A stretch of 64,000 nt of DNA from a virus, in the IMG/VR virus record IMGVR_UViG_2786546475_000019, positions 974 to 64,973 of that record; one strand, written 5' to 3'. The translations under genes and the position numbers were made by a program. The first letter of the stretch is position 1; the number at the start of each line of letters is the position of its first letter. A model generated the notes under the pieces. The model did no database searches. It saw only the letters and a program-made list of their open reading frames with translations, and had not been told where the DNA came from. Of this stretch, positions 1-25,567 are shown in pieces.

Positions 1-2
1 AA

Positions 3-87
3 GGACCATGGACCAAGGACAAAATGATAAATCTGGAACTGGACCCCGGACCCGGACAGGCCGACCAAGGACCGTGGACCGTGGACC
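3..87 (+). repeat. array of seven same-orientation GGACC pentamers, including GGACCGT x3 at 69-89
   Basis: GGACC starts at 3,10,41,48,69,76,83; non-coding window edge. Confidence 0.8.
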
Positions 88-357: not shown

Positions 358-685
358 GCTCAACTGCCCTATATTAGATACTTCGGTGTAGTCAATTTGA
401 CTACATGATAGATCGGCGATTTTGCCTAAATCCAAGGCATCGCTGCCCACGGTATAGGCACAAGGATATTAGACGGTAAAAACCGACATATTGTGAGCTT
501 TCCAGATCGCTTTCCCGAAAACTAAGTGTCCAGTAACTATTTCAAAGTATTTTCACGCGGGGAAAACCGATGAATGGGAGCCGCAGACAGCGTGCCTAAA
601 ATTCAGGCAGGTATAATTGGGGCGTTCCAAGCGAACACGGGCAAGCCAAGCCAAATTCGGCACGCTTGTCAAGTTCCACGGGACT

Positions 686-792
686 CGCTACACTGTATGC
701 TGTAGCGTTTGATCTTTGACAATTTGGTTTCTAGTTGGCGGTTAAACTCGCTACGCGGTCCAAATATCGCGGACCACGTAGCGAGTTTAACC
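686..792. repeat. 7-bp hairpin (686-707) and a long inverted repeat with 22-nt arms and one mismatch (740-761 / 771-792); both share the ACTCGCTAC/GTAGCGAGT core
   Basis: GGTTAAACTCGCTACGCGGTCC versus GGACCACGTAGCGAGTTTAACC. Confidence 0.85.
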
Positions 793-793
793 G

Positions 794-855: not shown

Positions 856-2217
856 ATGTCACAAGAATCTAAACTTACCTCTGTTTTGTCGCTGCATTTC
901 GATTTTGACGCGAAGTCTTTACTTTGCGGCATGAATCCCGGTTCAGATCGATACTTGACGCCAAACCCGGTTCAATCGCTAGTAGATAGCTTATTTGCTG
1001 GTTGGAATAGCCAGGAAAGCTTGAAAGCCATCACTAATGGCAATCTCGCTAAAATCGATCCGCGATTCACTAAAGCGGACGACGTAGCTAGTTTCGCTGC
1101 TAAACAGCGTCAAACTTTCCGTTCTGAATTCAGACCGGGGACAGACTTGTGGGCAGCTCTTTGCGGCAAGTCTGACAAGTTCATCGCCATTGGACCAGCA
1201 CCTGCAAAGGGGCAGCCTGATGAACGTTTAAAGATTCCCGTTGAATCGATCTACGCGGTCCTTAATCTTTGGTGCGGTACCAAAGCGAATGGCATGACCG
1301 TATCGGGCAACAGGCGTATGCTTGCGCTACTGTTTGTTCTGGCCCTTGAATATGCGGAAGCATTCGCGGAAGCATTAGGGGCAGGGAAAACGAACGAAGA
1401 CGCGGAAGCTGTTGCTAAAAAGACAGTGAAAGCTCATCGGATTCCCGTAGTATTCAAATCGTGGGACACGTTCCAAGATTTGACTAGCGAGCAAATTGCG
1501 GACAATGAACGGGTTCACCAGTCCAACTATACGGAATTGGATCAGGTACGTTTGGCCGTTAAGATCAAACGCGAAGACTGGGGACTGTCCAAGCGGGATA
1601 TCGCTCGACAGATTCCGGGTTTGCGGACCGTAGCCAAAAAGACTGGCGAACTACGCATTAACCAGCGTAGGGCGTCCAATGCAACGGATCGTGCCGATCT
1701 TGTCATCTATGCCGATGACGGGCTGGATATGAACGTCATGGACCGGTTGACCACGGACAACGTAGAAAGCTACGTTGAAGGTGGACCGATTCCAGTGAAA
1801 CGGATCGCTTTCGAACACGTTCCCTTCCTCATCGACGCTACCAAAGAGTACAGCAGTACCCACGCTGCTATTCTTAAAGCGGTTTACCCTGATGCTGTTT
1901 TCAGTGAAGGGGAGGCTATTGGCATCGATGCCGATTCTAAAGCTTTGGAACGCTATTTTCGGTATATTATCGAACATAGCGGTTCAGCGAAACAAGCTTT
2001 GACGATCAAGCAATTACGCGATGCGATCACAAAAATTCCGTCGTCCAAAGACGTGGAAGTATCGCTACGCAAGCTGTACGAAGTGATTGCCGCTGGCGAT
2101 CCAAACGCACTAGCGTTACCAGCTTTGAAAGCTTCAGCGTGGGCCACAATTGTGGATCGCGAAGCGGAAGCGGAAGCGGAAGCGGAAGCGGAAGCGGAAG
2201 CGGAATCCGCCAACTAG
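856..2217 (+). CDS. hypothetical protein; weak ParB/Srx-like signature (MTVSGNRRMLAL); C-terminal (Glu-Ala)7 tail
   Basis: 453-aa ORF, GGAAGGAA RBS-like sequence upstream; flanked by repeat arrays. Confidence 0.55.
   Translation: MSQESKLTSVLSLHFDFDAKSLLCGMNPGSDRYLTPNPVQSLVDSLFAGWNSQESLKAITNGNLAKIDPRFTKADDVASFAAKQRQTFRSEFRPGTDLWAALCGKSDKFIAIGPAPAKGQPDERLKIPVESIYAVLNLWCGTKANGMTVSGNRRMLALLFVLALEYAEAFAEALGAGKTNEDAEAVAKKTVKAHRIPVVFKSWDTFQDLTSEQIADNERVHQSNYTELDQVRLAVKIKREDWGLSKRDIARQIPGLRTVAKKTGELRINQRRASNATDRADLVIYADDGLDMNVMDRLTTDNVESYVEGGPIPVKRIAFEHVPFLIDATKEYSSTHAAILKAVYPDAVFSEGEAIGIDADSKALERYFRYIIEHSGSAKQALTIKQLRDAITKIPSSKDVEVSLRKLYEVIAAGDPNALALPALKASAWATIVDREAEAEAEAEAEAEAESAN
2161..2202 (+). 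repeat. (GAAGCG)x7 hexanucleotide microsatellite encoding (EA)7
   Basis: seven exact tandem units at the 3' end of the 856..2217 CDS. Confidence 0.95.
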
Positions 2218-2232
2218 AAACCCTTAGCCGCG

Positions 2233-2263
2233 GACCGGTCCAATTTGGACCGGTCTATTTTTA
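2233..2263 (+). terminator. rho-independent terminator candidate
   Basis: GACCGGTCC-AATTT-GGACCGGTC (9-bp stem) followed by TATTTTTA, 16 nt after the stop codon. Confidence 0.7.
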
Positions 2264-2273
2264 TGCCCTTGGA

Positions 2274-2333
2274 ATATCAACTAGCTGCACGCAATATCAA
2301 ATAGCTGCACGCAATATCAACTAGCTGCACGCA
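2274..2333 (+). repeat. three tandem 20-bp iterons AATATCAA(C/A)TAGCTGCACGC
   Basis: units at 2274, 2294 and 2314; one substitution in the middle unit. Confidence 0.9.
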
Positions 2334-2430
2334 AACCCGGTAGGGGTTTATCACAAGTCGTTGCACCCAGGAACAATACCGGGGTCCGTCGCCCTTAACG
2401 CGACGACACAAGCATGATATTTTGTGCCAC

Positions 2431-2577
2431 GGTCCCCGGACCTAGCTACTCGGACCTAGCTACTCGGACCATGCACCCTGATCCACGGACCATGATCCAC
2501 GGACCACGGACCAAGCTACTTAGGCCAAAACACAATGATACTGGGGTAGGGGTTCAGAATCCGCCGGTCCGTGGACC
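2431..2577 (+). repeat. GGACC/GGTCC array (7 GGACC, 2 GGTCC) with tandem 14-mers GGACCTAGCTACTC x2 and GATCCACGGACCA(T/C) x2, ending in the palindrome GGTCCGTGGACC
   Basis: tandem units at 2438/2452 and 2480/2494; palindrome at 2566-2577. Confidence 0.85.
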
Positions 2578-2612
2578 AAAGAACTTCATTAACGTTTCCT
2601 CTGAAAATTATT

Positions 2613-2676
2613 TTCTGAATTTTTTCAGAATTAGGGGCAATCCGTCCTGCCCTCATTCGTATCTATAGGGAAGTCC
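2613..2676 (+). promoter_or_regulatory. promoter-like module A1: palindrome TTCTGAA-N4-TTCAGAA, then TTTTCA-N6-GGGGCAATCC-N11-CATTCGTATCTATAGGGAAGTCC
   Basis: one of three copies with identical geometry (others at 59266-59322 + and 58653-58708 -); 12 nt before ATG 2688. Confidence 0.6.
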
Positions 2677-2687
2677 ACCTACTGATA

Positions 2688-3257
2688 ATGATAATGACAA
2701 GAAAACTTTATCCAGCATTACCTGATCACCCTGAGTACCGTTGCAAGTCCACGGCTCAAAACAAACATTGTACGTTTCTATCATGTGACGGACTTCGCAA
2801 ACTGAATCTGTACGACGATCCAAGGCAATCTGATAAATGTCCCAAGCACGCCGGACGACCACCAAGTAAACAAACAGCTTTGGCAAAGTACATGGACACC
2901 CATCCTCATGAGGTGGGTTATCATTTGCCGGACCAAGCACCAAAGGTGCATTCCCAATCCCGAAGTGTCGCCGAAGAACTTCACATTCTCCGCACACTTC
3001 TTCAAAACACCCTGAACCAATGCAATACGTCGCTCGACTTACTCGCTAACACTGAGCGAATGACAGTCTTAAGTGATAAGATTGCTAACTTGATAAAAAC
3101 TGACGTATTCCTCGAAGAAAAAACAAAGAACTCCTTGACGCGGGACCAAATCATGGCCGTGCTCTCGGAGATACAACAAGTGATAACTCGGCATTGTTCG
3201 CCGGAGCAGGTCGCACTGATCCGTCAAGACTTCCAAGAACTAACCATTCCTGACTAA
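2688..3257 (+). CDS. hypothetical protein, first gene of the rightward structural operon
   Basis: 189-aa ORF directly downstream of module A1. Confidence 0.6.
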   Translation: MIMTRKLYPALPDHPEYRCKSTAQNKHCTFLSCDGLRKLNLYDDPRQSDKCPKHAGRPPSKQTALAKYMDTHPHEVGYHLPDQAPKVHSQSRSVAEELHILRTLLQNTLNQCNTSLDLLANTERMTVLSDKIANLIKTDVFLEEKTKNSLTRDQIMAVLSEIQQVITRHCSPEQVALIRQDFQELTIPD

Positions 3258-3268
3258 CCTCAGTTACT

Positions 3269-3574
3269 ATGCCAAGTCACATAAATCCAAATCGCATCAA
3301 ATCAGAGACGATGTTCGCCGGAGCACAGAACATCAACATTATCACTACGGAATCCAGCGTCACGCTCCGTGCTCCAGATGATACAACTCAATCGCTCACG
3401 CCAACCGGAACCCATCCAAATAAAGTAATCTCAGCAACCCTCGATCAAGCAGGTTTCTACACCGTAGACGGTCACATTGGAAAAGTCCTTGTGCTTGTTT
3501 CCACTTATGATGAAACCTACGGAGCTGCTTACAGAGGAACGGGACTCACCCCAGTAGTAGGCCAAGACGCCTAA
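3269..3574 (+). CDS. hypothetical protein
   Basis: 101-aa ORF, co-oriented and tightly spaced. Confidence 0.5.
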   Translation: MPSHINPNRIKSETMFAGAQNINIITTESSVTLRAPDDTTQSLTPTGTHPNKVISATLDQAGFYTVDGHIGKVLVLVSTYDETYGAAYRGTGLTPVVGQDA

Positions 3575-3585
3575 CCAAACAAACC

Positions 3586-5217
3586 ATGTCATACGCAGAC
3601 GAAACAACAGCAAAAGCAGCCGTAGCAAATGCCATTGGCAACGCAACAAGCGTCGATCCAGTGAGCAATACGGAACATGCTGACGTTCTTGATAATTTGA
3701 TCGAGAACATCTTCGCCGCTGATGGTATCACTGTGTATTTCGCCGAACCTCTGTCGGGACTTGGCGATGACGGCGACGTCACAATCTACGAAAACAAAAT
3801 CTACTCGAAAGCTGCCGGAACATGGTCCGAGGAACTTGAATTAACAAGCTGGACTTTCAATACTGCTGATCCTCCCACGTCCACGTCTCACACTTATGCA
3901 ATCTCGACAACCGGCCAATTATACGTAAACGTCGCCGGAACATGGACCTTGCAGCAGTTATCATTAGGCAAATACAAAGGTGCTCACTCAACCACCACAA
4001 AGTATTACGCCAATGATATTATCCTCTACTCAGGGGAATTGCAGTACGCTAACAGCACGCACAATCCTAAGACATATGACGCCGCAGACTGGACTTCGCT
4101 ACCTACTGCGTCATCAACCCACGTACTCCACGATGATATCTCAACACTTCCTTCCTCCCCGGACGGTTACACGCTTGAACTATATGACGGGATCGGCGAG
4201 GGGATGCTCTTTGAGCGGGTATCAAGTGCGTGGGTTTACCGAACACAGACAACAACTCCAGTTGTTGACCTAACCTCTGGCAACGCTTCAACGATTGCAG
4301 CATATTTGTCCGCTGGTCAAATATATCGGTACAATTTAACGACAGGCGAACCATACTACGTTGATAACGCCGGAGCACGGACCTCGCTTCCTCCAATCCA
4401 AACCGCCGTAACAGCCCTACCGTCAATTGTAGACGGTCCCGATCTATTGGTTTGGACCACGGACCCTGACGGGCATCGAGCGTACTTTAAAGGAGCTTCC
4501 GCGTACCAGAAGCTCCCACTTGTCCCAAGTATCCAAGAGTCCGATCAATCACTTTCGGAGAATCGGGAACTAGCGTACAACGCCCGAACACTATCATTCG
4601 ACGGTGACGGCACATTCCGCTTCGGAGACTTAAGCGACAACACCGACGGATATTATGCGGCCTTCAACTCCGGTGCGTTACAGTGGGCCAATGCTACACC
4701 GGAAACGAACCTCACGTCCATCACCCCTACCATTGTCAATTCGCAAAACCTAGCTCTGGTAAACGACGGCACTAGCAACAGTTTCACGTTGAAATACGCA
4801 GGAAGCCAAGATCAAGACTTTACGTTTCCAGCAGATCTTCCAGCTTTAGGTAATATTCTGGAAGTCACGGGCCTTGCAACAAGTTCCATTGTAGTAGGCT
4901 GGCGTAAGCCCGTAAAAGACTGGTTCACGCTAACCTCAGCCACCCCAACTGTGACAGTTGACGGCAATGATAGCAAACGCTTTAAACTTGACCCTGGGCA
5001 CACTCCAATTACAATTGCTTTCACTAATTGTGAGCAACATGATTTTGTTCTCCTCAAGATACGAGGTCACGCTACAAACTCAGTGTCAATGCCTGCCGGA
5101 GCAGACGGTGACGTTTTCTCTCTTAGTACGGATGATACAAAAGCAACTTTAGTCACAGCTATCATTGATGGTTCCGCCATCCATCTTGGCGTAATGAGGG
5201 ACGTATCATGGGCTTAG
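3586..5217 (+). CDS. putative tail fibre / receptor-binding protein
   Basis: 543 aa, Thr/Ser/Gly/Tyr-rich repetitive beta-type composition; adjacent to a beta-helix protein. Confidence 0.45.
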   Translation: MSYADETTAKAAVANAIGNATSVDPVSNTEHADVLDNLIENIFAADGITVYFAEPLSGLGDDGDVTIYENKIYSKAAGTWSEELELTSWTFNTADPPTSTSHTYAISTTGQLYVNVAGTWTLQQLSLGKYKGAHSTTTKYYANDIILYSGELQYANSTHNPKTYDAADWTSLPTASSTHVLHDDISTLPSSPDGYTLELYDGIGEGMLFERVSSAWVYRTQTTTPVVDLTSGNASTIAAYLSAGQIYRYNLTTGEPYYVDNAGARTSLPPIQTAVTALPSIVDGPDLLVWTTDPDGHRAYFKGASAYQKLPLVPSIQESDQSLSENRELAYNARTLSFDGDGTFRFGDLSDNTDGYYAAFNSGALQWANATPETNLTSITPTIVNSQNLALVNDGTSNSFTLKYAGSQDQDFTFPADLPALGNILEVTGLATSSIVVGWRKPVKDWFTLTSATPTVTVDGNDSKRFKLDPGHTPITIAFTNCEQHDFVLLKIRGHATNSVSMPAGADGDVFSLSTDDTKATLVTAIIDGSAIHLGVMRDVSWA

Positions 5218-7058
5218 GATTAGGATTAAACATGGGCTTGTTTCCTTTACCATCGGTTAAAGCAACATTGGACAACCGTCCTTTGTTCACGTCGCTTGCA
5301 TTTTTGCAATGGCGTCGCGATATAGTAACTGCAAAAGAACGCCCCACGTATTGGATCCCTCAAACAGAGTATTACGTCAGTGAATCGACCGGTAACGACG
5401 CTAACGCTGGAACAGAAGTCGCCCCTTGGCAAACACTTGAAAAAGCTCAACAAGTTCTTGACGCTTTGTCTGATGAATCGTATACCGTTATACGGCTCAA
5501 ACGTGGTGATACTTGGGAAGAAGAAGGAACTGTTTTAGCGGTAGACGGAAACTCGTGCTTACTGCGACTGACAAAGACGTTCAGCGGGATCAGTTCTTAC
5601 GGGTCCGGTGACCTGCCGTTTATCAATCAATTTGCTACCAAATACACGTCGGGTTGGACTGTTCACAGTGGGAACGTCTACGTCCGATCGGAAGCCAATG
5701 ATATTGTTAGCGTTCGGCTAACAACTGATCGCCTTGTACCTTTTTACGACGCCACAGACGCTACAGATTGTGCTACCGATATTGCTGACACAAACGGCTC
5801 ATATTTTTATGATGCGACTGGCAACAACTTATATGTCAACCTTGGCGGTACTGATCCGAATACAGTAACGATTGAAGCTGCAATTTCTAATGATGACACA
5901 GTTGAAGCGGTAGCACATGGTTGTTTCATCGAGAACATTCGGCTCGACGGCACGTTAAAAAGAACAACAAGGGACGAGCAGGCGGGTATCCGTTTAAATA
6001 TCAATGGCAGTGAAGTCGCAAGAATCGAGAACTGTGAAGCGTATTATGGTTCGTCTCACCTGATACACCAGAACGGTTTAACCGGGACTGGCGGCATCGG
6101 TATTATCAAGAATTGCAAAGCTGGCTATTCGCTCTGGAATACTGGCGGAAACACGATTTTCAATTCATACACATTAGGCGGCGATCAAGAGACTTATGTC
6201 CAAGACTGCGAGGTTCCTTATGGAACATTACCAGGTCACGAGTGGACGTCGACTAACTCAGCACACGATGCTTTAGATGGTTCAGCGTTTTATTGTCATG
6301 CTGGTGGCGGGGCAAACACTGGGTTTATCCTCGTCGATGGGATGAAGTGCGACCATGATAACGCTTGGGGTCCGCAAGAAGGGTCTTACAATGGTAGTGC
6401 TCCAGCAGCAGCAACAATCGAAGACGCCAAGGTAGTTGTCTTCGGAGAGGTCGTAGATAACAGCCGACTTGGGTTGCGATGTTTCCGATTATCACCTGCG
6501 AACGGAGTTGGAATTTGCAACACGTACACAGGAGGCTACGGCACCGATAGAAATTACCGAGCACTTTCAGCAACAAACCAAAGCGGCTTTATGTTTAATT
6601 GTCGCTTCGACGTTTCTCTCCCTGCTGGACTATTTAACGCTCACGGATTCTGGAACGGTTCTGGAACGTCAAATGTAAGCTGGTTCTTTAACCGTTTTAT
6701 CCAACGAGCTTCTCACGGATCGCATGATCTTGCGTTTAATTATGACTCCGTTTCTACATGGCCTGACAGCACGCTTTACAACAACGTTATCGCTCGCGTT
6801 GGAACCTATGATAACTCGGTCGCTATGTATAACGGCACTCCCGATTCCAACAACAATGCTCTGTATCAATTCAAAGGGGCGAACGCAGGAGCAAACTCAA
6901 TTGACATTACAACCGAGGCCGAAGCGGTTCAAGACACAGCAAATGTTGATACTTACGGTACATGGGAAGCTGCAAATACAGCAATCGGAGTTGTGCCTGA
7001 GTACGACAGGCTTCTGAACCCGCGAACAGCAACAACAAGCATTGGAGATTTGGCGTAA
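5208..7058 (+). CDS. right-handed beta-helix (pectate-lyase fold) tailspike / depolymerase-like protein
   Basis: N-terminal STGNDANAGTEVAPWQTLEKA motif typical of parallel beta-helix proteins; Asn/Gly-rich repeats; ATG overlaps the upstream stop. Confidence 0.55.
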   Translation: MGLGLGLNMGLFPLPSVKATLDNRPLFTSLAFLQWRRDIVTAKERPTYWIPQTEYYVSESTGNDANAGTEVAPWQTLEKAQQVLDALSDESYTVIRLKRGDTWEEEGTVLAVDGNSCLLRLTKTFSGISSYGSGDLPFINQFATKYTSGWTVHSGNVYVRSEANDIVSVRLTTDRLVPFYDATDATDCATDIADTNGSYFYDATGNNLYVNLGGTDPNTVTIEAAISNDDTVEAVAHGCFIENIRLDGTLKRTTRDEQAGIRLNINGSEVARIENCEAYYGSSHLIHQNGLTGTGGIGIIKNCKAGYSLWNTGGNTIFNSYTLGGDQETYVQDCEVPYGTLPGHEWTSTNSAHDALDGSAFYCHAGGGANTGFILVDGMKCDHDNAWGPQEGSYNGSAPAAATIEDAKVVVFGEVVDNSRLGLRCFRLSPANGVGICNTYTGGYGTDRNYRALSATNQSGFMFNCRFDVSLPAGLFNAHGFWNGSGTSNVSWFFNRFIQRASHGSHDLAFNYDSVSTWPDSTLYNNVIARVGTYDNSVAMYNGTPDSNNNALYQFKGANAGANSIDITTEAEAVQDTANVDTYGTWEAANTAIGVVPEYDRLLNPRTATTSIGDLA

Positions 7059-7309
7059 TGCTACTAAACATAACTGATAAACACGGTGTCACTGTGGGTG
7101 TTGTTGAAGCAGACACCTTGGAGAAAGCTTCCAAGCTCGCAAGAGATCACGTCACCAAGTTGGTAGATCCTCCTGCTCCTGACGGCACTCCAGGCATGAA
7201 GTACCCTAAGACTGAAAGCTCTGATTTGTTCATCGCATTCTTCCGAGAAGAAACTGATAAGCGACCAATATTGAAATTCAAATTCAAGCCACTTGATGTG
7301 ATCAAGTAG
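7058..7309 (+). CDS. hypothetical protein
   Basis: 83-aa ORF; TAATG overlap with the upstream gene. Confidence 0.5.
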   Translation: MLLNITDKHGVTVGVVEADTLEKASKLARDHVTKLVDPPAPDGTPGMKYPKTESSDLFIAFFREETDKRPILKFKFKPLDVIK

Positions 7310-7320
7310 TTAATAGACCA

Positions 7321-8034
7321 ATGAAAGAAATTTTAGATTCACTATCACTAATCGGGCTGTTTGTGCTATCCATCGTAACGATCATGCATTTCGTACAGCT
7401 TGACAATCGAGGCGAGTGGATGCGACAAGTGCAAGAAAATTTTGACTACGGACAGCGATGCAGCTTGCACGATTTGAAGCAAACCATCAAAGCAAACAAT
7501 TTAATAGAGCCTGATTTTGCACCGCGTCCTCCAGTCCCTGAACCGTTTTGGCGAGAAACTACAACGTCTGCAAAATCAGACACCTGCCCACATTGTAATG
7601 TACCAATGAGATTTTTTGATTGTGTTGGAACCGTTCGGGCGTGGCGTATTATCATCGCACATTCTCTGATCAGTGCGATGTATCTGGGTATTGCGTTTTT
7701 CCGTTTTCTTCCGGCTGGAATGGAAGCACGAACGCAAACGGAACGAGTTGTTTGGTATTCGCTCGCGTTTATCTTCCCGTTTTGCTGGGCTGCGGGATAC
7801 GGGACGACGATACTCGCCGGCTGGTTTCCTGCTTTGGCGTACTTTTTGAAAGAATCAGCGTGCTACGTTGACGCTGCATTTTGTGTTACTTTTCTATGGT
7901 CGACGCGAAATCAAAATTTGGTTTCGGTTACTGTTGATAGTTTTCGAGACGAAATTGAAGACATTGTCAACAACGAAGACTCTGACTTATCTCACGGCGA
8001 CCGCATTCAGCAGATTCGAGACTCTTTGCAATGA
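7321..8034 (+). CDS. multi-pass membrane protein
   Basis: several hydrophobic segments; CPHCN motif. Confidence 0.5.
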   Translation: MKEILDSLSLIGLFVLSIVTIMHFVQLDNRGEWMRQVQENFDYGQRCSLHDLKQTIKANNLIEPDFAPRPPVPEPFWRETTTSAKSDTCPHCNVPMRFFDCVGTVRAWRIIIAHSLISAMYLGIAFFRFLPAGMEARTQTERVVWYSLAFIFPFCWAAGYGTTILAGWFPALAYFLKESACYVDAAFCVTFLWSTRNQNLVSVTVDSFRDEIEDIVNNEDSDLSHGDRIQQIRDSLQ

Positions 8035-8408
8035 ATATCTGGCTCTTGATGCAAGAATCGACAGCCCCTGGAATGCCTGCATGGGTGGGGTTCGTCACTG
8101 GTACGGGAGGTGGTCTAGTGATGGCAATTTTCGGACTGATTGCGTTGTGGAAGCGAATGATCTTCAAGGAAACACAGTACGAAAAACGGCTCGAAACGAA
8201 AGACAAAGAAGTCAATCAAATCGGGCGAGAGTTCGTTGAACTATCGATAAAGATGTTGGAACGGGACGAAAAAAACCGGGAAAACGATAAGGCAATCCGC
8301 GATGGTTTCGACAGACTAATTGAGCACGTTAAAACCGACTCACTTAAAATGGAGAATTGGCGGAAAGAGGTGGATCGAATATTGGCACAGCTGGTACCCC
8401 GTAAGTAA
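8031..8408 (+). CDS. membrane-anchored coiled-coil protein
   Basis: N-terminal TM (FVTGTGGGLVMAIFGLIALW) followed by a charged helical region; ATGA overlap. Confidence 0.5.
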   Translation: MNIWLLMQESTAPGMPAWVGFVTGTGGGLVMAIFGLIALWKRMIFKETQYEKRLETKDKEVNQIGREFVELSIKMLERDEKNRENDKAIRDGFDRLIEHVKTDSLKMENWRKEVDRILAQLVPRK

Positions 8409-8430
8409 AACGCAAAACAAAAGAGAACAA

Positions 8431-9531
8431 ATGACGAATTTAAGAACCCTGCTGCTGCTTCTAACAATTGTTGTTTTTCCGTCCATTTGTATCGGACAAG
8501 AGGGTCCAGATATCACTCAATGGCTGAAAGACAAGATCGCGAACCACGAACCTATCAAGTTGGAGCGTGGCGATTACTTCATTACAGAAACGATCAAGCT
8601 TCCAGGCAAGTACGGATCTTCGATTGAGGGTGTCGGTGTGGCTGCTGCTCACTTGTCTTCTGCAAACCCATACAATTGGCAGTCGACACGCATCTTCTGG
8701 CGTGGTGAACCGAATGAAGCCATGTTTCGGGCAGATGGATCGAATCAAACATTTAAAAACCTCACTCTTGTCGGCAAGCCAAGCTACAACGGCTCGACAG
8801 TTGAGGGCGTCGTCGGCGTGAAAGTCTTAAAAGCTCGCGGGCTTGGAACAGGCAAGCATCGATTCGAAAGTGTTTGGTTCCAGAACTTACACTACGGAAC
8901 ACAATGGGGTGAGTCTGCTACAGGGGCAGGTGCAAATTGCGACGAATCGTATTTTGACTCTTGTACATTCATGCAATGCCATTCAGCGACACGGTACGAG
9001 CACAGCCAAGCACTCGGCTTTACGTACATGAATTGTGTCTATAAGCAAGTTGAACGGTGTCATGATATTCAAGCCGGTGGGCATATCACAGCGTACAAGT
9101 GTTTCGTATCACAACCACCAAGCGGCAAGAAAGTTAACTTCTTTCACTTCACCGATGAAGCACAACGACGATATCGTATTGGAACATCGGCTGGAATGAT
9201 CACAGCTTACAATCTTAAGGTGGATTATCAATCAAAAGAAAACTTCCGAGCAGTCTGGATGGACAGCGACGTGAACGGTGTAACGATCACGTTCCGAGAT
9301 TGCCAAGTATCATTCACGGACTACGGCAAGGAACTATTCATCAAGGCAGGTGGTCCTGCAAAGATCGTCATTGATAACTGTCGCTTTCCCGGATATACAA
9401 CCTCACGCTACCAATTGAATACAGATGATCGTGGATTGACGCCAACGATGCAACGACCAACGATGGAATATATTCCACGAGCGATCGATACGGACCCTGT
9501 TCCTTCACCTACACCTATCGGACAAGGCTAA
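8431..9531 (+). CDS. secreted beta-helix-like protein
   Basis: start moved to ATG 8431, giving a signal-like MTNLRTLLLLLTIVVFPSICIGQ; GDYFITETIKLPGKYGSSIEGVG resembles the pectate_lyase_3 N-terminus. Confidence 0.5.
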   Translation: MTNLRTLLLLLTIVVFPSICIGQEGPDITQWLKDKIANHEPIKLERGDYFITETIKLPGKYGSSIEGVGVAAAHLSSANPYNWQSTRIFWRGEPNEAMFRADGSNQTFKNLTLVGKPSYNGSTVEGVVGVKVLKARGLGTGKHRFESVWFQNLHYGTQWGESATGAGANCDESYFDSCTFMQCHSATRYEHSQALGFTYMNCVYKQVERCHDIQAGGHITAYKCFVSQPPSGKKVNFFHFTDEAQRRYRIGTSAGMITAYNLKVDYQSKENFRAVWMDSDVNGVTITFRDCQVSFTDYGKELFIKAGGPAKIVIDNCRFPGYTTSRYQLNTDDRGLTPTMQRPTMEYIPRAIDTDPVPSPTPIGQG

Positions 9532-10265
9532 TGGATTGGACTGTAGCTGTAACTGCTTTAATTGCTTCTTTGCTTGGTTCCGGGGCTACTGGTGGTGCGA
9601 TTGCTGCGTACTTCAAATTTCGTACAAACCAGCAAGCTGTAAAATATGAACAGCAAGAAGTGTTATTCAAACAGATAATGGAGAACGCGAACCGAGCAAC
9701 GGCAAGAGTTGATATCTTGCTCAACGAACTTGCGAAACGCGACGAAGCCATCACTGAACGCAACACTAAAATTGGACAGCTCCAAAACGAAGTTCACGCC
9801 CTATCCGAAAAGGTCGATCGGCTCCGCAAGCAGATTAAACAAATGGAGTCTAACCGAATAGCCTACGACACCATGCACGTAGTCGAAGGTATGATGGACA
9901 CGTTCCCGTTCCCAGCTTGGCTACACTCAGTTGGCGAGAATAAATGGTACGTCAACGACGCATATTGCAAAGCATTTGGAATACACCGCGACACGTTCTG
10001 GCAAGGGGTAAACATCTTGGCGATGTACCCCGCTGAAATTGCGGCAAAGTACGTTCAACATGATATGAAAGTGGTAGAGTCCAATATGGGTTCGCTGTTT
10101 ACCGAGCAAGTCAGCAAAAACGTGATGCAACACGATCCACAATCTGAATTTGAGTGTGACATTTACAAGATGCCAATTGTAGCAGGCGGGAAAAGATACA
10201 TTTTCGGGCTGGCAAAGCTTGGGCATGACGTATGGGGCAACAAACTAGCAACTATTTCAGACTAA
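9531..10265 (+). CDS. TM anchor, coiled coil and PAS-like domain protein
   Basis: N-terminal TM, heptad region (ITERNTKIGQLQNEVHALSEKVDRLRKQIKQME), C-terminal PAS-like pattern (WYVNDAYCKAFGIHRDTFWQGVNILAMYPAE). Confidence 0.45.
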   Translation: MDWTVAVTALIASLLGSGATGGAIAAYFKFRTNQQAVKYEQQEVLFKQIMENANRATARVDILLNELAKRDEAITERNTKIGQLQNEVHALSEKVDRLRKQIKQMESNRIAYDTMHVVEGMMDTFPFPAWLHSVGENKWYVNDAYCKAFGIHRDTFWQGVNILAMYPAEIAAKYVQHDMKVVESNMGSLFTEQVSKNVMQHDPQSEFECDIYKMPIVAGGKRYIFGLAKLGHDVWGNKLATISD

Positions 10266-10274
10266 GGTGATAAA

Positions 10275-10526
10275 ATGAATACCGTTATTATGGGGGTAAC
10301 AGTTAGTTGGAAAACTACTGTTGCTGCAATTCTTTCCTCTCTGGCTGCTATTTTTATGGTGCTAGCTGCTTATTTTGATGGCGACCCAGCCACGATCCCT
10401 AATTGGGAAACTGCAGCAATTGCCGTGTTGGCAATCGGCCAAATGATTATTGGGGTTTTTACTAAGGACAATGATAAGTCCACTGAAGACCATAAACTTC
10501 CTCGTAAACGATTGAGGACAAAATAA
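10275..10526 (+). CDS. small two-TM protein, holin-like
   Basis: 83 aa, two hydrophobic helices and a basic C-terminus (KLPRKRLRTK). Confidence 0.4.
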   Translation: MNTVIMGVTVSWKTTVAAILSSLAAIFMVLAAYFDGDPATIPNWETAAIAVLAIGQMIIGVFTKDNDKSTEDHKLPRKRLRTK

Positions 10527-11554
10527 TGGCTACTACCAAAACATTACTTCAAGGCTTTGACGGGCGGGAAGACTTTCGTGATATGCTTCGCGAAATGCGA
10601 ACGGCTGCCCTTCGGTCTTGGGACATTACTCTTGCAATACGTATTCGCAAAGTTCTTCGAAACAATAAACTGTTTGAAAAAGTCTACGACCATGCAACTG
10701 TAACTTCGGCTCAAGCTCTACTTGATAGTCCACGGCTCTCGGAATTTGGCGATGGGGAGTTTGGCAAATGGTTCCTCGATTGGTTCAAGAACGGTGGGGC
10801 TCAAGCTATCATTGAGTTCATTCGAGCATTGCTCCCGTTGTTTGGAGCTTTTATGAGCGTTCTGTTACCGCTTCTTATCACTTTGTCTTTGTGTGCCACG
10901 GCCCAAGGTCAAAGTATCAAAGGAGCCGAAACTGCTAAACCGGGATCGCTCGTTGTCTTAACGCCGGTGGATGCTGACGATGTTCGAACAGTTTGGAACT
11001 TGAATTACCCCGAACAATTCGAGGAGTATGCAGAAGAAAACGGCAAGCTTTTCATTGCAATGCCGTCAAAAACAATTTCGTTTTCACTTCTGGTGATTCC
11101 AAACGATACAACACTCCCAATTCGTAACCTACGTCATACAGTTTCTCCGTCTGACGCTCCAGTGGTTCCGGGCCCCGGTCCTGATCCAGTAGTGCCGAAA
11201 CCTCCAGAGATTGACGTAACTCAATCTCCAATTTATCAATTTGTCAAGAACAGTTTTGAGAGTATCCCGGACCCTAATAAGCGAGAAAGGGCCGGTAAGC
11301 TTGCAAAATCCTTTGGCATCATTTGTGCTCAAATCAAGAATAAAGAAATTACAACAGTCAACGACCTCTTGACTGATATTCGAGAGGCTAACCTGAAAGA
11401 TTGGCCCGAAGACTCTAGGCAACTGTGGACCTCTTTCCGTAACGGTATGGCTCGCCAGTTTGATACTTTGGAAGACGCTGGGGAGTTGGAGACCGTTGAC
11501 GATTTCTACCTTCATTTGAAAGCAATTCAAGTCGCTCTTGAGGAGTCAGTTTAA
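10526..11554 (+). CDS. hypothetical protein with a central TM segment and a Pro-rich linker
   Basis: 342-aa ORF; TAATG overlap. Confidence 0.5.
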   Translation: MATTKTLLQGFDGREDFRDMLREMRTAALRSWDITLAIRIRKVLRNNKLFEKVYDHATVTSAQALLDSPRLSEFGDGEFGKWFLDWFKNGGAQAIIEFIRALLPLFGAFMSVLLPLLITLSLCATAQGQSIKGAETAKPGSLVVLTPVDADDVRTVWNLNYPEQFEEYAEENGKLFIAMPSKTISFSLLVIPNDTTLPIRNLRHTVSPSDAPVVPGPGPDPVVPKPPEIDVTQSPIYQFVKNSFESIPDPNKRERAGKLAKSFGIICAQIKNKEITTVNDLLTDIREANLKDWPEDSRQLWTSFRNGMARQFDTLEDAGELETVDDFYLHLKAIQVALEESV

Positions 11555-12492
11555 TGTACCCAATTCGTAGATTACCCGACGACCTTATCGTCAGTGAAGG
11601 GTTAACAGCTAAACAAATCAAAAGACAAGACGTTGGCTGGGATGAAATTGATCTCCAGCTTGATAAAGCTTTTGGCCGAGAAAATGAAAACCGATGCCCG
11701 ATTTTTATTGCAGACACCGGTCTTCCTGAACATCCAGATATTCCTAAAGCCCAAGAAGCTTGGAATTTTACCGACGACCCTTCTGTTGTGGATTTGAACT
11801 TCCACAGCACTTGGATCAATGGTAAGATGACGGCGTACAACAATGATATTGGGTACGAAGGTATTTGCCCTGAGGATACTCCAGTATTCATACTTAAAGT
11901 CTTGAACAATCAGGGTTCTGGTTGGCGTATGCTTCAAGCAATGCGTAAAGCGTTAGATTTCTGGGTCAACCATCCTAAACGTCGCTCAGGGGAGTGGGTT
12001 GCGGCAGTTTATAATATGAGTTACGGGGGTGGCGGCTATTCACAAGATGAACAAATTTTGTTTAAGGATATGATAAAAGAGAACATTCTTCCGTTTGCTG
12101 CCAGCGGCAATGAAGGACGTTCGGCTCCCTCATTCCCTGCGAAATATGAAGGAGTTCTATCAGTTGGAGCTTATGACCCTCAACGAGAGAAAGCAAGCTT
12201 TACTAATTACGGCCCGTGGACTGATTTTGTTGCTCCCGGCGTCAACGTCCCTTCCACAATCGGCAAAAACAAGTACGGCCCATATAGTGGGACGTCAATG
12301 GCTTGCCCAATTAAAGCAGCGTGTGCCGCTAATTTTATCAGCTCTCGCCCTAATGATAAATGGATGCATGATGTTCCAGGTTATCAAGAAGCTGTACAAC
12401 CGTATATGGAGAATCTGCCCGGCACTTGGGATGGAGACGGAGTATTCCTTCCCGCAAAAGGAACAGTTCGCAACAAATACTTTTTCTGGTAA
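11554..12492 (+). CDS. subtilisin-like serine protease (peptidase S8)
   Basis: Asp motif IFIADTGL, His motif FHSTWINGK, oxyanion YNMSYGGGG, Ser motif YSGTSMACPIKAA; no signal peptide. Confidence 0.8.
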   Translation: MYPIRRLPDDLIVSEGLTAKQIKRQDVGWDEIDLQLDKAFGRENENRCPIFIADTGLPEHPDIPKAQEAWNFTDDPSVVDLNFHSTWINGKMTAYNNDIGYEGICPEDTPVFILKVLNNQGSGWRMLQAMRKALDFWVNHPKRRSGEWVAAVYNMSYGGGGYSQDEQILFKDMIKENILPFAASGNEGRSAPSFPAKYEGVLSVGAYDPQREKASFTNYGPWTDFVAPGVNVPSTIGKNKYGPYSGTSMACPIKAACAANFISSRPNDKWMHDVPGYQEAVQPYMENLPGTWDGDGVFLPAKGTVRNKYFFW

Positions 12493-12502
12493 AGGAGATC
12501 CC

Positions 12503-12961
12503 ATGAGATCACTACTATTATCAATGCTGACTTTGTCACTTGTTTGTTTTATTTCGTCTATTGGAACAGCAAGCACTCCGCTTACGTTTCAAGACGCTTT
12601 CAACCCCTGCCCTAACGGAGTGTGTCCAACTCCAGTACAAGGCGTCACGGTTCGCAAACCTTTGCTTCGCCCACAAACCACGATCTATGAAGCTTGGGAC
12701 GCGACACAAGGAGTTGTTCAATATTCCCAACCAGTGATAATTTCACAAGGAGTTGTTGAACAATTCACCGCCCCAGTCCAAGAGGTTATGACTACGGAAG
12801 TCGTTTACGAGTACACAACTTTATCAAACGCCATGTACTCGCAATGTGCGACTGCCAATATGGCAGTCGATATTCAACGACGGCGACGTAACTTGGTAAC
12901 GGCGTGGCGACAAAGACCTGGACTATTTGGATGGCGTAAACGACGAGGGCTATGTCAATGA
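12503..12961 (+). CDS. small secreted protein
   Basis: start moved to ATG 12503 (AAGGAG RBS at 12492); signal-like MRSLLLSMLTLSLVCFISSIGTAS; basic C-terminus. Confidence 0.5.
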   Translation: MRSLLLSMLTLSLVCFISSIGTASTPLTFQDAFNPCPNGVCPTPVQGVTVRKPLLRPQTTIYEAWDATQGVVQYSQPVIISQGVVEQFTAPVQEVMTTEVVYEYTTLSNAMYSQCATANMAVDIQRRRRNLVTAWRQRPGLFGWRKRRGLCQ

Positions 12962-13218
12962 ATCCAGTAGCTCACACCCTTCGATTGATATCAGTGACAG
13001 CAACAGCCGAAACTCTTAAGAGCCAAAACGATTTGTTCCACGGAGCTTCGGAAATTCGAGTGACCCCTGCTGCTGATATTACAATGAAGGATTTGCAGAC
13101 GGGAGCTTCTGTTACATTAACTTCCGGCCAAACACATTCCCTACCTGCCGCTAACGTTGCGACAGAATTTCAATTCACCACAAGTGGAGCCGAAGTGTTC
13201 CAAGTTTACTCCGCATGA
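12952..13218 (+). CDS. hypothetical protein
   Basis: 88-aa ORF immediately upstream of the terminase. Confidence 0.45.
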   Translation: MSMNPVAHTLRLISVTATAETLKSQNDLFHGASEIRVTPAADITMKDLQTGASVTLTSGQTHSLPAANVATEFQFTTSGAEVFQVYSA

Positions 13219-14894
13219 TAACTGAACTGTTTGACCATTTAGCCGAAAGCTTAACCCACAGCACAATCACAAATTGTGCTCAGTGGGCGTTAGAGCGTAG
13301 GGTTATGGGACGACCGTTCGAGGGCCCATGGAATTTTAAATTATTTCCGTGGTTATACACTCCGCACGTTTCCAACCATCCATTTCGGTTGGCATTGAAA
13401 GGTGCTCAATTAGGGTTTACAGAGTGGGCAATTAACGAAGCTTTTTACGCTATTGATCATAAGCGTTCAAATGTTTTATATTGTCTGCCTACAAAGGGCA
13501 ACGCGGGTGACTTTTCAACCACCCGCTTCAACCCTGCCCTAGCCCTTAGCCCCTATATCGCGAACTTGTTCTCTGGTGCAGATAATGTATCATTGAAGAC
13601 GGCAGGTTCTCGGTCACTGTATATTAGGGGTTCAAAGGCTAGAGCAGACTTGAAGTCTTTGCCAATTACTGTTTTGATACTTGACGAAATTGATGAAATG
13701 CCTAAAGAGTCAATCTCTCTAGCTCATCATCGTCTTGATGGACAAGCCGTAGGTTCAACTTCATTGCTTGAATTATCAACTCCTACTCTACCTGATATGG
13801 GGATTGACGCTGAGTACAAATTATCAAACCAGATGATTTACGTATTCCAGTGCCCAGGATGTAGCAAGTATATTGACTTGCAATACCCTAGGAATTTTAA
13901 GCTAACTGCTACGCGAATGAACGATCCTGACATTGAAAAGAGTTATTTCTTTTGTCACGAGTGTGATTACGTAATAGACCACGAAGCCAAACCAGAGATT
14001 TTTAAATGCAAGGAAATGGGCGGCACGGGTCACTACAGACCGCAAGTAAAATATGCTGACCGAGAAGGGTACTATGTAAATCAAATGTACTCCTCGGCCA
14101 AAGGCGGAACGCCAATTGAGTGGGCTAAAGCCGTAATACTTGCAGAAACAAATCCGTCAAAAGAACAAGAGCTTTGGAACTCTAAAGTTGGTAAAGGCCA
14201 TGCAACAGAGAACGCAAAGCTAGAAGAAGGAGTCTTAGAGCAGCATAAGCGAAACTACACTATTGCCGACTACGAACTCCATGATAATCGTATTAGAACA
14301 ATTGGGTGTGATGTTGGAGCAGTTTGCGATTTAGTGTGCTTAGAGTGGACGTGGGAGTCTGATCTTGGCCTGCCTAATGATAGATACCGTCCTCGACTGG
14401 TAGGTGAATTATCATTGCCCCGATCTTCGGAAGATGCCCGAGCCATTTTGGACTACTTCCGAAAGATGAACGCTCATATGTTTGTTATGGATTCCGAACC
14501 TGAAAGTCGTTTTGCTCGACAAGTCATCAATTTGCTAGGCGACTATGGGTTCATGTGTGATTATGGGAAAGGATACAAAGCAGGACAAGTTAATGTTAAA
14601 GAAGAAGATGGCTTTATCACTGTAAATCGAACTACATGGTTGGATATAACTATGTCTCGATTCACAGCTGCTAACAAAGACGGAACAGATTTACCTAGCG
14701 ACATAAGCGAACGATTCCTTCAACATATGACAGCCCCTGCTAGATATTACAAAGATGATGCAAATGGCGACCCCATAGCTATTTACAAAAATGAAAAAGC
14801 GGATCACTTGTTTCATGCGTGGACCTACGCTGAGATAGGATTGCCTCTTTACTTCCTAACAGCCGAAGGCGAAGATATCGATGTTATCTTTTAG
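13215..14894 (+). CDS. terL: terminase large subunit, GpA-like
   Basis: LKGAQLGFTEWAINEAFYAIDH...LYCLPTKGNAGDFSTTRFNPAL and zinc-ribbon FQCPGCSKYIDL resemble the lambda GpA family; followed by a portal-sized ORF. Confidence 0.75.
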   Translation: MITELFDHLAESLTHSTITNCAQWALERRVMGRPFEGPWNFKLFPWLYTPHVSNHPFRLALKGAQLGFTEWAINEAFYAIDHKRSNVLYCLPTKGNAGDFSTTRFNPALALSPYIANLFSGADNVSLKTAGSRSLYIRGSKARADLKSLPITVLILDEIDEMPKESISLAHHRLDGQAVGSTSLLELSTPTLPDMGIDAEYKLSNQMIYVFQCPGCSKYIDLQYPRNFKLTATRMNDPDIEKSYFFCHECDYVIDHEAKPEIFKCKEMGGTGHYRPQVKYADREGYYVNQMYSSAKGGTPIEWAKAVILAETNPSKEQELWNSKVGKGHATENAKLEEGVLEQHKRNYTIADYELHDNRIRTIGCDVGAVCDLVCLEWTWESDLGLPNDRYRPRLVGELSLPRSSEDARAILDYFRKMNAHMFVMDSEPESRFARQVINLLGDYGFMCDYGKGYKAGQVNVKEEDGFITVNRTTWLDITMSRFTAANKDGTDLPSDISERFLQHMTAPARYYKDDANGDPIAIYKNEKADHLFHAWTYAEIGLPLYFLTAEGEDIDVIF

Positions 14895-16407
14895 AAACAC
14901 TTCCGACTCGTTCAACTTTGATTTGAATATTACCAAATGGTATGAAGCTTATTATGGCGGGTATCAATTCATTGATAAATATCTGTACCAACAATCAAGC
15001 GAAAAGACAACTGAATTTGAGATACGTAAAAAGATTGCGTACAACCCTCCAGTATTGCAAAACGAGGTAGATCGTATTTTAAGAGCCGTCCAAGAACGTT
15101 TGCACTTGGTCAAACGGCGTAACGGCTCTCGAACCTATCAACAAATGGTAGCAGGAGAGAACGGCGGAGTAGATTATTTTGAGACCAACATGAATTTGTT
15201 TATGGCGGATCAAGTTCTACTTCACTTACTGATAGGCGGCGGGTGTGGAATCTTTATTGATAATTACGGCCCCGAAGATTTAACGTTTGAAGGGAACACT
15301 CACCCGTTCCTTCGAGTAGTTCCTCGTTACAAAATCACGCAAATGGAATACGGAGCTAATCGACAATTTGATAAAGTTTGTTTTGAAAATTTCAAATTTG
15401 AACGAGATTCAGACGGTCAACTTTGGTACACAGTTTACGACACGGACCCCGAAAAAGAGAAAGAGATCGATACACAAGGCCAATTGGAACTAAGCCGTAT
15501 TCCTTTTGTGTGGATTGAAATGCCACGACCCTTGTTGCGAGATGCAGCTGATATGCAAATTGCTTTGTTGAACCAACACTCAACTGAGCTTGAGTTCGCT
15601 ACCAAGTACAACTTTCCAATTTATTACGAGTACACGTCTCCTCGCGGTGGCGGAGACGTGCGTGATAAAAATCGAGAAATTGAACTTACCAAAACAAAAG
15701 GACGTAAAGTTAAACAAGGTTCTGGCCCTCCAGGTTATGTTACCCCGCCAACTGAAAATTTGGACGCGTCCATGCGTAAGAGTGAGCAGATCACTCAATT
15801 GATAAAAGACACTATCAATTCGAACATGGAAGAAAATAAAGAGGATGGTCAAAGCGGCTTGTCCTCATTGGGTCGCTTAATGGAGCGAGCGGAAAATGAA
15901 GTAGCCACGCTTCTAGAAGAATATATCAATGAAGGCGGACAAGCAAGAGTTTGTTACCCAAAAGTGTTCACCCTTCAAACGGTTGAAGAACGAACAGCTG
16001 AAGCTGAACTGTTTGAAAAAATGAGCAATTGCGTACCATCCAAAACGTTTCGAATGGTAACGCATAAGCAAAAAGCAGAAACGCTACTTGGCCCTGTTCT
16101 AACTACCGAAGAACTTGATGTTATATTCAAAGAGATCGAAGAAGCTCCGGCTTCGTGTGTAAACCCTGAAATGCTTTTAAAGCTTCTAGAAAAAGGAGCT
16201 TTGACTACTCATTTAGTTAATGAAATTCTTGGGTATCCTGCTGACGAAGCAGATAAAGCTTTGGAGCAACTTGCTGACCGAATGGCCGTCACTGTGGTAG
16301 CTCAAAGCAAAGCTAAAGAAGTTCAAAGTGATAGTTTACCAGACGACGCTCGACAAGCTCAACGCGGCGAGCAAGATGTTCCTAATGATATTGGAGAGCC
16401 TACCTAA
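14881..16407 (+). CDS. portal protein
   Basis: 508 aa, directly after terL with an overlap; acidic C-terminus; called by synteny. Confidence 0.6.
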   Translation: MLSFRNTSDSFNFDLNITKWYEAYYGGYQFIDKYLYQQSSEKTTEFEIRKKIAYNPPVLQNEVDRILRAVQERLHLVKRRNGSRTYQQMVAGENGGVDYFETNMNLFMADQVLLHLLIGGGCGIFIDNYGPEDLTFEGNTHPFLRVVPRYKITQMEYGANRQFDKVCFENFKFERDSDGQLWYTVYDTDPEKEKEIDTQGQLELSRIPFVWIEMPRPLLRDAADMQIALLNQHSTELEFATKYNFPIYYEYTSPRGGGDVRDKNREIELTKTKGRKVKQGSGPPGYVTPPTENLDASMRKSEQITQLIKDTINSNMEENKEDGQSGLSSLGRLMERAENEVATLLEEYINEGGQARVCYPKVFTLQTVEERTAEAELFEKMSNCVPSKTFRMVTHKQKAETLLGPVLTTEELDVIFKEIEEAPASCVNPEMLLKLLEKGALTTHLVNEILGYPADEADKALEQLADRMAVTVVAQSKAKEVQSDSLPDDARQAQRGEQDVPNDIGEPT

Positions 16408-16859
16408 TGTACGGAACAATTGCAGAAGCTGATATTTATTTCACAACAAAACAATTTGATAACTTGAACGTCTGGCGAGACGCTCTAGACACTGATAAAA
16501 CAATCGCGTTAACTCAAGCCGCTCTACAGATTGATGGTTTGAAATACGCAACGGATACTCCATCTGGCCAAGAACATAAGTTTCCCTTGACGGGCCAAGA
16601 TGCAGTACCTACTAACGTAAAATATGCAGCGTATGAGATTGCTCGTGCGTTGCTATTTGGTGCGGACCCCAATCAAGATGATGAACTTCTTGACGCATCG
16701 GGAATTACTTTAGGAGAAATGCAAGTTTCCAAAGACCTAAAGTATATCTCAAGGGCGAAAGACAATGGAATTTCTTCTGCTGTCGCTTTTAAGTTTTTAT
16801 TACCGTACCTTATCAGTGACGATTACATTGATATTGTACGAGACCAACCCTCTGTTTAG
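16407..16859 (+). CDS. head-tail connector / gp6-like adaptor
   Basis: N-terminal YGTIAEADIYF...W...ALTQAALQID pattern common in connector proteins; position after the portal. Confidence 0.4.
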   Translation: MYGTIAEADIYFTTKQFDNLNVWRDALDTDKTIALTQAALQIDGLKYATDTPSGQEHKFPLTGQDAVPTNVKYAAYEIARALLFGADPNQDDELLDASGITLGEMQVSKDLKYISRAKDNGISSAVAFKFLLPYLISDDYIDIVRDQPSV

Positions 16860-16871
16860 AAAGAGAGATTT

Positions 16872-25564: not shown

Positions 25565-25567
25565 CTC

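Follow-up and report, generated by a model that had tools for sequence, protein, structure and literature searches.

Tandem 20-bp units and seven-base-phased GGACC arrays around an orphan phage gene resemble protein-docking sites

The origins, centromeres, operators and packaging signals of plasmids and phages are assembled from arrays of short tandem binding sites. In the incC-repA-incA layout of P1, a gene lies between copies of a short repeat that its own product binds, and it is autoregulated through these repeats. Arrays of short repeats flank the terminal repeat of T7, while T5 and SPO1 encode early genes within their terminal repeats, and in T5 the inner ends of these are repeat-rich. 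The omega protein of pSM19035 binds contiguous 7-bp heptads that act as operator and centromere, at least four contiguous heptads being required (PMC9499535), and for pB171 parC1-parAB-parC2 constructs have been listed (PMC4270457). Here we analyse a 64,000-nucleotide stretch, hereafter the window (positions 974 to 64,973 of IMG/VR record IMGVR_UViG_2786546475_000019), from an uncultured marine phage with a genome of ~72 kb, focusing on the repeat region at 2218-2580 and on the neighbouring gene 856..2217, which encodes an orphan protein of 453 aa. These arrays belong to an abundant uncultured marine phage lineage that is present in many Tara Oceans assemblies, and they are paired with proteins that are nearly without relatives. 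The original prediction, made from the bare sequence, had read the region as a cis element of partition or origin type; non-coding, cis-acting repeat DNA is indeed what we find, but a partition function was not established.

The 20-bp units and the 7-bp-phased GGACC arrays look like protein-docking arrays, and of all statements about this locus this one is best supported. Every element that had been listed for 2218-2580 is present, with coordinates off by a few bases at most. Including the array at the left end of the window, the repeat DNA is composed of the following:

1..87, + strand: window part of the upstream GGACC heptad array, which extends ~120 nt past the window start
2232..2263, + strand: intrinsic terminator of gene 856..2217, with an 11-bp stem at 2232-2256 (7 G-C pairs; holding GGACC and GGTCC) followed by ATTTTTAT
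2273..2332, no strand: three tandem 20-bp units with cores AATATCAA and GCTGCAC (Tandem Repeats Finder: period 20, 3.1 copies, 95% matches)
2333..2430, no strand: conserved non-repetitive spacer with hairpins at 2333-2349 and 2387-2405 and an ATGATA motif, nearly invariant in four strain sequences
2431..2525, + strand: heptad lattice of ~14 heptads in one register, GGACCNN alternating with GCTACTC or GATCCAC
2545..2577, no strand: second GGTAGGGGTT and palindrome GGTCCGTGGACC
2587..2633, no strand: CATTAACGTTT motif, then A/T-rich 10-11-bp repeats and palindrome TTCTGAATTTTTTCAGAA; an equivalent A/T-rich repeat lies ahead of another promoter copy at 59245-59276

GGACC and its complement GGTCC occur 13 times within 2218-2580, where 0.80 would be expected from the remainder of the window (Poisson P = 4e-12), and no other stretch of the window is as dense in them. 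All seven sites between 2431 and 2508 share a single phase modulo 7, and the GGACC-GGACC distances across the locus are almost exclusively 7, 14, 21, 28, 35 and 42. The tandem 14-mers that had been described as separate repeats (GGACCTAGCTACTC twice over 2438-2465, GATCCACGGACCA(T/C) twice over 2479-2506) exist, but are really parts of one heptad lattice spanning 2431-2525, which keeps its 7-bp register with at most 2 contiguous GGACC heptads. The upstream array, earlier placed at 3-87, is likewise real but only the tail of a larger array reaching upstream of the window; in L001 (838-1062), 11 of its GGACCNN heptads are contiguous, ~30 heptads keep a near register, and 905-977 has a period of 7 with 10.4 copies. 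Its 8-11 GGACCNN heptads exceed a run of four contiguous 7-bp repeats. Between and beyond these arrays, GGTAGGGGTT is found at 2339-2348 and 2545-2554, twice as first noted, although the first copy turns out to belong to a hairpin, AAACCC..GGGTTT, of which it forms one arm; L002 preserves this hairpin as AAACCCC-GTG-GGGGTTT. The palindrome GGTCCGTGGACC is present at 2566-2577 but not conserved, reading GGGCCGTGAACC in L002 and L003.

Copy number in near-identical strains changes by whole units: there are three or four 20-mers (three in the window, four in L001 and L002), two or three GGACCTAGCTACTC 14-mers and 8 or 11 upstream heptads (8 in L004, 11 in L001); L001 has an additional 14-mer, and the lattice of L002 counts 15 heptads. 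Despite these changes, the GGACC core and the 7/14/21-bp register are retained. Because the core is invariant while the two bases between cores vary (AT, GT, AA, TA, AC, CC), the pattern suggests selection on a recognition sequence rather than plain slippage. Strain indels of 20, 14 and 8 nt show that the array DNA is non-coding, and since they break the frames of the small open reading frames (ORFs) within the arrays (2414..2668 and the called minus-strand genes of L001 and L004), we regard these ORFs as spurious. No Rfam family matches the repeat region, and the RNA folding of 2264-2633 is unremarkable (z = -1.8). A scan of IMG/VR for three tandem GGACCNN heptads gave more than 119 unrelated matches, some with 7-10 heptads and none sharing proteins, and was not informative; tandem GGACCNN arrays of 5-10 copies stand, for example, in the unrelated viral contigs L119, L120, L100, L112 and L097.

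An array also occupies this position in a distant relative. L009, the locus of a 31%-identical homologue of the 453-aa protein, is syntenic with the window: the homologue is followed by two small genes, then by a non-coding stretch of 335 nt, and then by orthologues of the 189-aa and 543-aa genes of the window. Within these 335 nt stand five exact same-strand copies of CCAAGAGCC, followed by A/T-rich DNA and a palindrome; allowing one mismatch at most, CCAAGAGCC has 6 matches there, a number reached in 0 of 200 shuffles, and it is also present, at a different spacing, in the strain variant L133. The CCAAGAGCC array in both sequences indicates that this small module conserves an array of a short one-strand motif upstream of its 189-aa gene. 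This positional equivalent is devoid of the GGA motif, and CCAAGAGCC is one transposition away from the CCAAGGACC of the window. Drift from CCAAGGACC to CCAAGAGCC is what co-evolution of the sites with a module-encoded binding protein would be expected to produce. Two further relatives with ParB, primase and PolA genes, L010 and L011, are without the 453-aa module, and their divergent regions hold other palindromes.

The gene between the arrays was correctly described as bracketed by repeats, with the same motif on both sides. It comes with signals of its own:

666..694, + strand: sigma-70-like promoter candidate of gene 856..2217, TTGTCA-17-TACACT, by consensus match only
739..793, + strand: inverted repeat in the gene leader with 23-nt arms and a central GGTCC-N9-GGACC; a second hairpin is next to it, at 793-820
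856..2217, + strand: orphan 453-aa gene, its product a candidate array-binding protein with unproven ParB likeness

With a sigma-70-like promoter, two leader hairpins and a terminator, gene 856..2217 looks like an autonomous unit as judged by these sequence signals. The terminator has a functional form. The G+C-rich hairpin at 2232-2256 and its T run lie directly after the stop codon; in L002 the stem is different, yet still contains GGACC..GGTCC and is followed by TTTTTT. The GGTCC-N9-GGACC pair of the leader is retained in L002 and L004, and the GGTCC/GGACC pairs of both the leader palindrome and the terminator stem are common to both strain types (L002 400-450 and 1850-1885).

Searches of 1.84 billion representative proteins gave the 453-aa protein only two relatives: a 95% strain variant (P0001), which a word-indexed search retrieved, and a more distant, 31%-identical protein of 454 aa, added by an exhaustive HMMER search. 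IMG/VR scans found no homologues, and there was no match among Pfam, PHROG, NCBIfam and PDB sequences, with Pfam, PHROGs and NCBIfam blank even at E <= 10; the identical product is also encoded on Tara Oceans contigs of ~72 kb. The suggestion that the protein is ParB-like failed against a ParB hidden Markov model (HMM) of 37 homologues of the phage's true ParB, which scores it at noise and recovers the three true ParB_N genes at 1e-89, 1e-38 and 4e-7. A structural check was of limited help, as the AlphaFold model from a 3-sequence alignment was unusable (mean predicted local distance difference test, pLDDT, 41.5), but profile-profile comparison did give a weak local ParB match, with hhalign pairing residues 187-253 with ParB box III and with the beginning of the helix-turn-helix (HTH; P = 0.006, probability 6%). 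The weak GNRR box seen at the outset is part of an SGNRR motif retained as SAQRR in the distant homologue P0002 (S-x-x-R-R), in which QIADNxRxxQSNYT is also conserved; the RR-to-IPV spacing is 2-3 times longer than in ParB. We take this likeness as a weak lead, not a result. The three ParB_N genes of the phage lie at 59360..60403, 63402..end and 41021..41377 (- strand), the true ParB genes being 57 kb from 856..2217, and the two larger ones are conserved in L010 and L011. For the 453-aa protein, (GAAGCG) x7.5 at 2161-2205 encodes an (EA)n tail that is missing from the 95%-identical P0001.

The genome is organised into three long transcription blocks. A rightward virion block (2688..33403) contains TerL (13215..14894), the capsid gene (17758..19122) and the tape measure gene (21642..25241); a leftward block (58592..33580) encodes an AEP/D5 primase-helicase, a Dam-class methylase, a helicase, a CsrA-domain protein, ThyA and a sigma factor; and a rightward replication block starting at 59360 encodes ParB, an SNF2 helicase, a second ParB, PolA and ligase. 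The primase-helicase gene (55980..58592) is an 870-aa ORF of the P4-alpha-like AEP/D5 type, with annotated P4-type primases among its matches. The elements of these blocks that bear on the arrays are:

2634..2670, + strand: extracytoplasmic function (ECF)-type promoter-like element, GGGGCAATCC-N14-CGTA-N-CTATAGGG, heading the 30-kb virion operon 2688..33403
58660..58696, - strand: second promoter-like copy, heading the primase-helicase operon
59278..59314, + strand: third promoter-like copy, heading the ParB-helicase-PolA operon
37586..38236, - strand: sigma factor of the phage (Sigma70_r2 and r4 domains), which presumably reads the three promoter copies; its gene lies inside one of the three operons
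2688..3257, + strand: first operon gene, 189 aa, with conserved C-x8-C-x22-CPxH, an AGRPP motif and a helical C-terminal half
59017..59058, no strand: another heptad array, CACGCTA/CACGTAT, 6 heptads, in the divergent primase/ParB region
44384..44770, - strand: CsrA-domain protein, 128 aa

The promoter-like element occurs exactly three times in the ~72-kb genome, once at the head of each long block, and GGCAAT-N16-CGTA is present in 3/3 copies and nowhere else in the genome. We presume that this layout, GGCAAT followed after 16 nt by CGTA, is that of ECF-type promoters (sigW/sigM-like), which combine a G(G)CAA(C/T)-type box at -35 with CGT(A/C) at -10, 16-17 nt apart. A T7-like RNA polymerase promoter (CTATAGGG) was rejected, since the 870-aa ORF is the primase-helicase, the element fits a -35/-10 ECF layout and a sigma gene is present. 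Three identical putative ECF-type promoters together with a phage sigma factor make a simple, testable regulatory map for a phage without a cultured host. Proximal A/T-rich 10-11-bp repeats precede each copy, whereas the distal arrays differ: the GGACC lattice and the 20-mers lie distal to the virion-operon copy, and the divergent region of the two replication-operon copies holds the CACGYWW heptad array, GCACGTGC palindromes and a AAATGATAA palindrome. Because the promoter-like copies are identical and the arrays upstream of them differ, it may be the arrays that set operon-specific timing.

Two other motifs recur. The CATTAACGTTT or AAC(C)GTT motif is found upstream of promoter copies (2587-2597, 58736-58750, 58793-58803 and 58924-58937) and, in distant relatives, upstream of the 189-aa orthologues (~2715-2730 of L009 and 10-25 of L132). 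The AAATGATAA/TTATCATTT motif is ~9-fold enriched in non-coding DNA, with many sites in L001 150-960, sites at 2411-2420, 2531-2540 and 2683-2697 of the window, and a palindrome with 12-bp arms upstream of ParB (59143-59172). Palindromes of the GCACGTGC type lie within 59060-59220, beside the CACG heptad array at 59017-59058, and together they make a candidate origin or ParB loading region.

From these observations we infer that a protein binds the repeats, which protein it is, and that transcription responds. The repeats would be tandem docking sites taken by a sequence-specific phage DNA-binding protein, for which the orphan 453-aa protein encoded between both arrays is the most economical candidate; the 189-aa protein is a second candidate binder, or may be small-terminase (TerS)-like. 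Occupying many side-by-side copies, the protein could form an operator-like or centromere-like nucleoprotein complex flanking gene 856..2217 and regulate its own gene through the leader GGTCC-N9-GGACC pair and the terminator sites. At the same time, the protein would gate the 30-kb virion operon through the downstream array, which lies 110-400 bp upstream of the putative ECF-type promoter (2634-2670), so that the timing of this promoter would differ from that of the two sequence-identical replication-operon copies. That the orphan protein binds GGACC, autoregulates and gates the adjacent virion-operon promoter is an explanation we favour tentatively, and several observations weigh against it. 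A DNA-binding fold was not demonstrable for either candidate, the AlphaFold model of the 189-aa protein (pLDDT 47.1) being as unusable as that of the 453-aa protein; the number of sites is far above that of ordinary operators; ~560 nt separate the larger upstream array from the closest predicted promoter; the downstream GGACC heptads are mostly 14 bp apart and not contiguous; the promoter assignment is one of pattern; and the junction of the replication and virion modules is also a classical location of packaging sites.

This last point leads to an explanation that we consider possible, if doubtful, in which the arrays are binding sites of the terminase small subunit that mark the cuts in a concatemer and bound a direct terminal repeat carrying 856..2217 as an early gene. 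One 71-kb contig (L004) continues from the genes past the right end of the window into its left end, so that the map is circular or terminally redundant, and on this map the repeat region falls precisely where the replication operon ends and the virion operon begins. What separates the two is, in order, 1.65 kb of non-coding DNA rich in repeats, gene 856..2217 standing alone, and a 470-nt spacer with the downstream repeats. The two arrays are like-oriented and 2.35 kb apart, and the gene they enclose has its own predicted host-type promoter and its terminator. From 2688 to 33403, the gaps between listed ORFs are all <270 nt, and those checked are filled by smaller genes. TerL is closest to the terminases of Herelleviridae (22-24% identity), which package long direct terminal repeats, but its Pfam match is of the lambda gpA type, which leaves the packaging class ambiguous. 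It also lies 10.5 kb downstream of the arrays, whereas cos or pac sites would adjoin the terminase genes. No small terminase is recognisable beside TerL, where the 86-aa neighbour appears non-helical by eye; the 189-aa first gene, in turn, is of small-terminase size, has a zinc-ribbon-like motif and a helical tail, and always accompanies the array in relatives. A cos site beside the terminase was rejected, as 12503-12961 upstream of TerL is a continuous ATG-started frame with a signal-peptide-like N-terminus. The ends of independent assemblies speak against cuts at the arrays, as they fall in other repeats, mostly a 30-bp coding repeat, and one 71-kb contig crosses the region.

A replication origin or copy-control region, which we judge unlikely, would have the 20-bp units as iterons and the heptads as auxiliary sites, with the 453-aa protein or the C-terminal domain of the AEP/D5 primase-helicase as initiator, an A/T-rich stretch and the promoter aiding opening, and the two clusters acting like P1 incC-repA-incA or like P4 ori plus crr. 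The three to four head-to-tail 20-bp units, each of about two helical turns with two conserved half-sites, do have the form of iterons (at least three direct units of ~17-22 bp), the same motifs flank a gene on both sides, and the phage encodes a P4-alpha-like primase-helicase; TGATCCAC, similar to the alphaproteobacterial DnaA G-box, has two copies in the array against only 3 in the whole window. A/T-rich DNA is available at 2601-2633 and, as a block of ~150 nt, in the upstream non-coding DNA (L001 290-440), but it is limited to these two places, canonical DnaA boxes are neither clustered nor enriched, and GC skew tracks gene orientation alone and gives no origin signal. No initiator is recognisable among the neighbours of 453, 189, 101 and 543 aa, which have no Rep, DnaA or winged-helix family match, and the divergent region at 58593-59359, with its own heptad array, palindromes and A/T-rich DNA, is the more conventional place for an origin. 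Partition of a plasmid-prophage, in which a ParB-type protein would bind the arrays as centromeres and a ParA ATPase would move them, is in our view the least probable explanation. The arrays match type Ib centromeres in scale (8-11 contiguous units), their placement around a gene resembles pB171 parC1/parC2, and the phage has three ParB_N genes; however, the true ParB genes are conserved in relatives that have neither the 453-aa gene nor the arrays, and the 453-aa protein is not recognised by the ParB HMM. The original prediction saw no ParA or Rep gene in the window, and this holds for the whole ~72-kb genome, where the family records of called genes contain no ParA/CbiA/AAA_31-type ATPase, integrase, protelomerase or plasmid Rep. 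With PolA, AEP primase-helicase, ligase, ThyA and a sigma factor, the gene set looks lytic, which together with the missing ParA makes plasmid partition unlikely. It is also highly unlikely that the repeats act at the RNA level, as a GGA-rich sponge or target for the CsrA-domain protein, or have no function, as neutral slippage-prone microsatellites. The phage does encode a protein with a CsrA domain (E = 1e-9), the transcribed strand holds nearly all of the GGACC sites, copy number is unstable and tandem GGACCNN arrays also occur in unrelated viral contigs. Against this, the 5-mer is invariant between variable spacers, the position is conserved across relatives of 30% identity, a terminator stands just upstream, no + strand promoter was detected, and at least one unrelated array (L129) is simply coding. 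The CsrA sponge in particular is disfavoured by the blank Rfam search, the ordinary folding and the GGA-free equivalent in L009.

A wider proposal, improbable as it stands, combines parts of these explanations. It takes the 453-aa protein, which may be a very distant ParB/KorB-like clamp, to load on the flanking one-strand GGACC heptad lattices and either to gate the virion operon or to define a terminal repeat of ~2.4 kb, with protein and motif co-evolving as a portable cassette, as CCAAGAGCC in L009 might illustrate. Such a DNA-organising module in a lytic marine phage would, if true, be previously undescribed. The module 856..7058 has a higher G+C content (48-50%) and a negative GC skew in comparison with the remainder of the rightward block, it is the only part shared with L009 and L132-L134, and it may itself be a portable cassette.

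The same genes are carried by several independent 71-72 kb assemblies. A blastn search of window positions 1-8000 against 50,697 phage records gave zero matches, and in tblastn TerL, the primase and the major capsid protein had only remote matches and PolA had none, which indicates a lineage without a cultured relative. No called gene has an integrase on record. Just upstream of TerL, within the virion block, 11554..12961 holds a subtilase (Peptidase_S8) gene along with an ORF of 152 aa whose N-terminus is signal-peptide-like. A 30-bp tandem repeat specifies (PQAEAGDAEP)n at the C-terminus of the last replication-block gene (L001 1-133, L004 19800-19870); it lies just upstream of the window start, varies in copy number and is where most 72-kb assemblies break. 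A hexamer array, (GCCGTA) x24 at 51474-51616, lies inside ORF 51285..51629 (- strand) and would encode a (Tyr-Gly)n stretch.

Set beside the systems described at the outset, the locus shares with pSM19035 omega head-to-tail 7-bp units in copy numbers of 7-10 or more, upstream of promoters, where a single array can act in regulation as well as in DNA organisation (PMC9499535). The omega heptads are WATCACW, contiguous and of mixed orientations, whereas the phage arrays have a GGACC core, lie nearly all on one strand and, in the downstream array, alternate with other heptads; no ribbon-helix-helix (RHH, Arc, MetJ, CopG) family is on record in the phage genome. ParB and KorB, which are CTP clamps that load at specific sites, are approached by the weak resemblance of residues 187-253 to box III and HTH, by S-x-x-RR and by sites near promoters, but the 453-aa protein falls outside the ParB HMM, and its putative sites are direct heptads, not palindromes of 13-16 bp. 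The cassette-like layout proposed in the original prediction is borne out in its resemblance to P1 incC-repA-incA and pB171 parC1-parAB-parC2, where the same short repeat likewise surrounds the gene or genes that encode its binding protein and are regulated through it; here the bracketed gene, an orphan, shows none of the RepA, winged-helix, RHH or ParA signatures, and the phage appears lytic. With the terminal-repeat arrays of T7 and T5, the locus has in common many copies of a short motif at spacings of ~7-14 bp flanking a segment, which lies where 'right end' genes meet 'left end' genes and contains a presumed early gene transcribed by the host, the terminal repeat here being putative; it differs in that the terminase of the present phage is only distantly related to any characterised one. 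If the 453-aa protein binds the heptads, it would represent a new DNA-binding family and offer a handle on genome timing or packaging. Tandem-site nucleoprotein platforms are a known kind of element, and the present locus, while overturning nothing that is known about them, ties them to orphan proteins.

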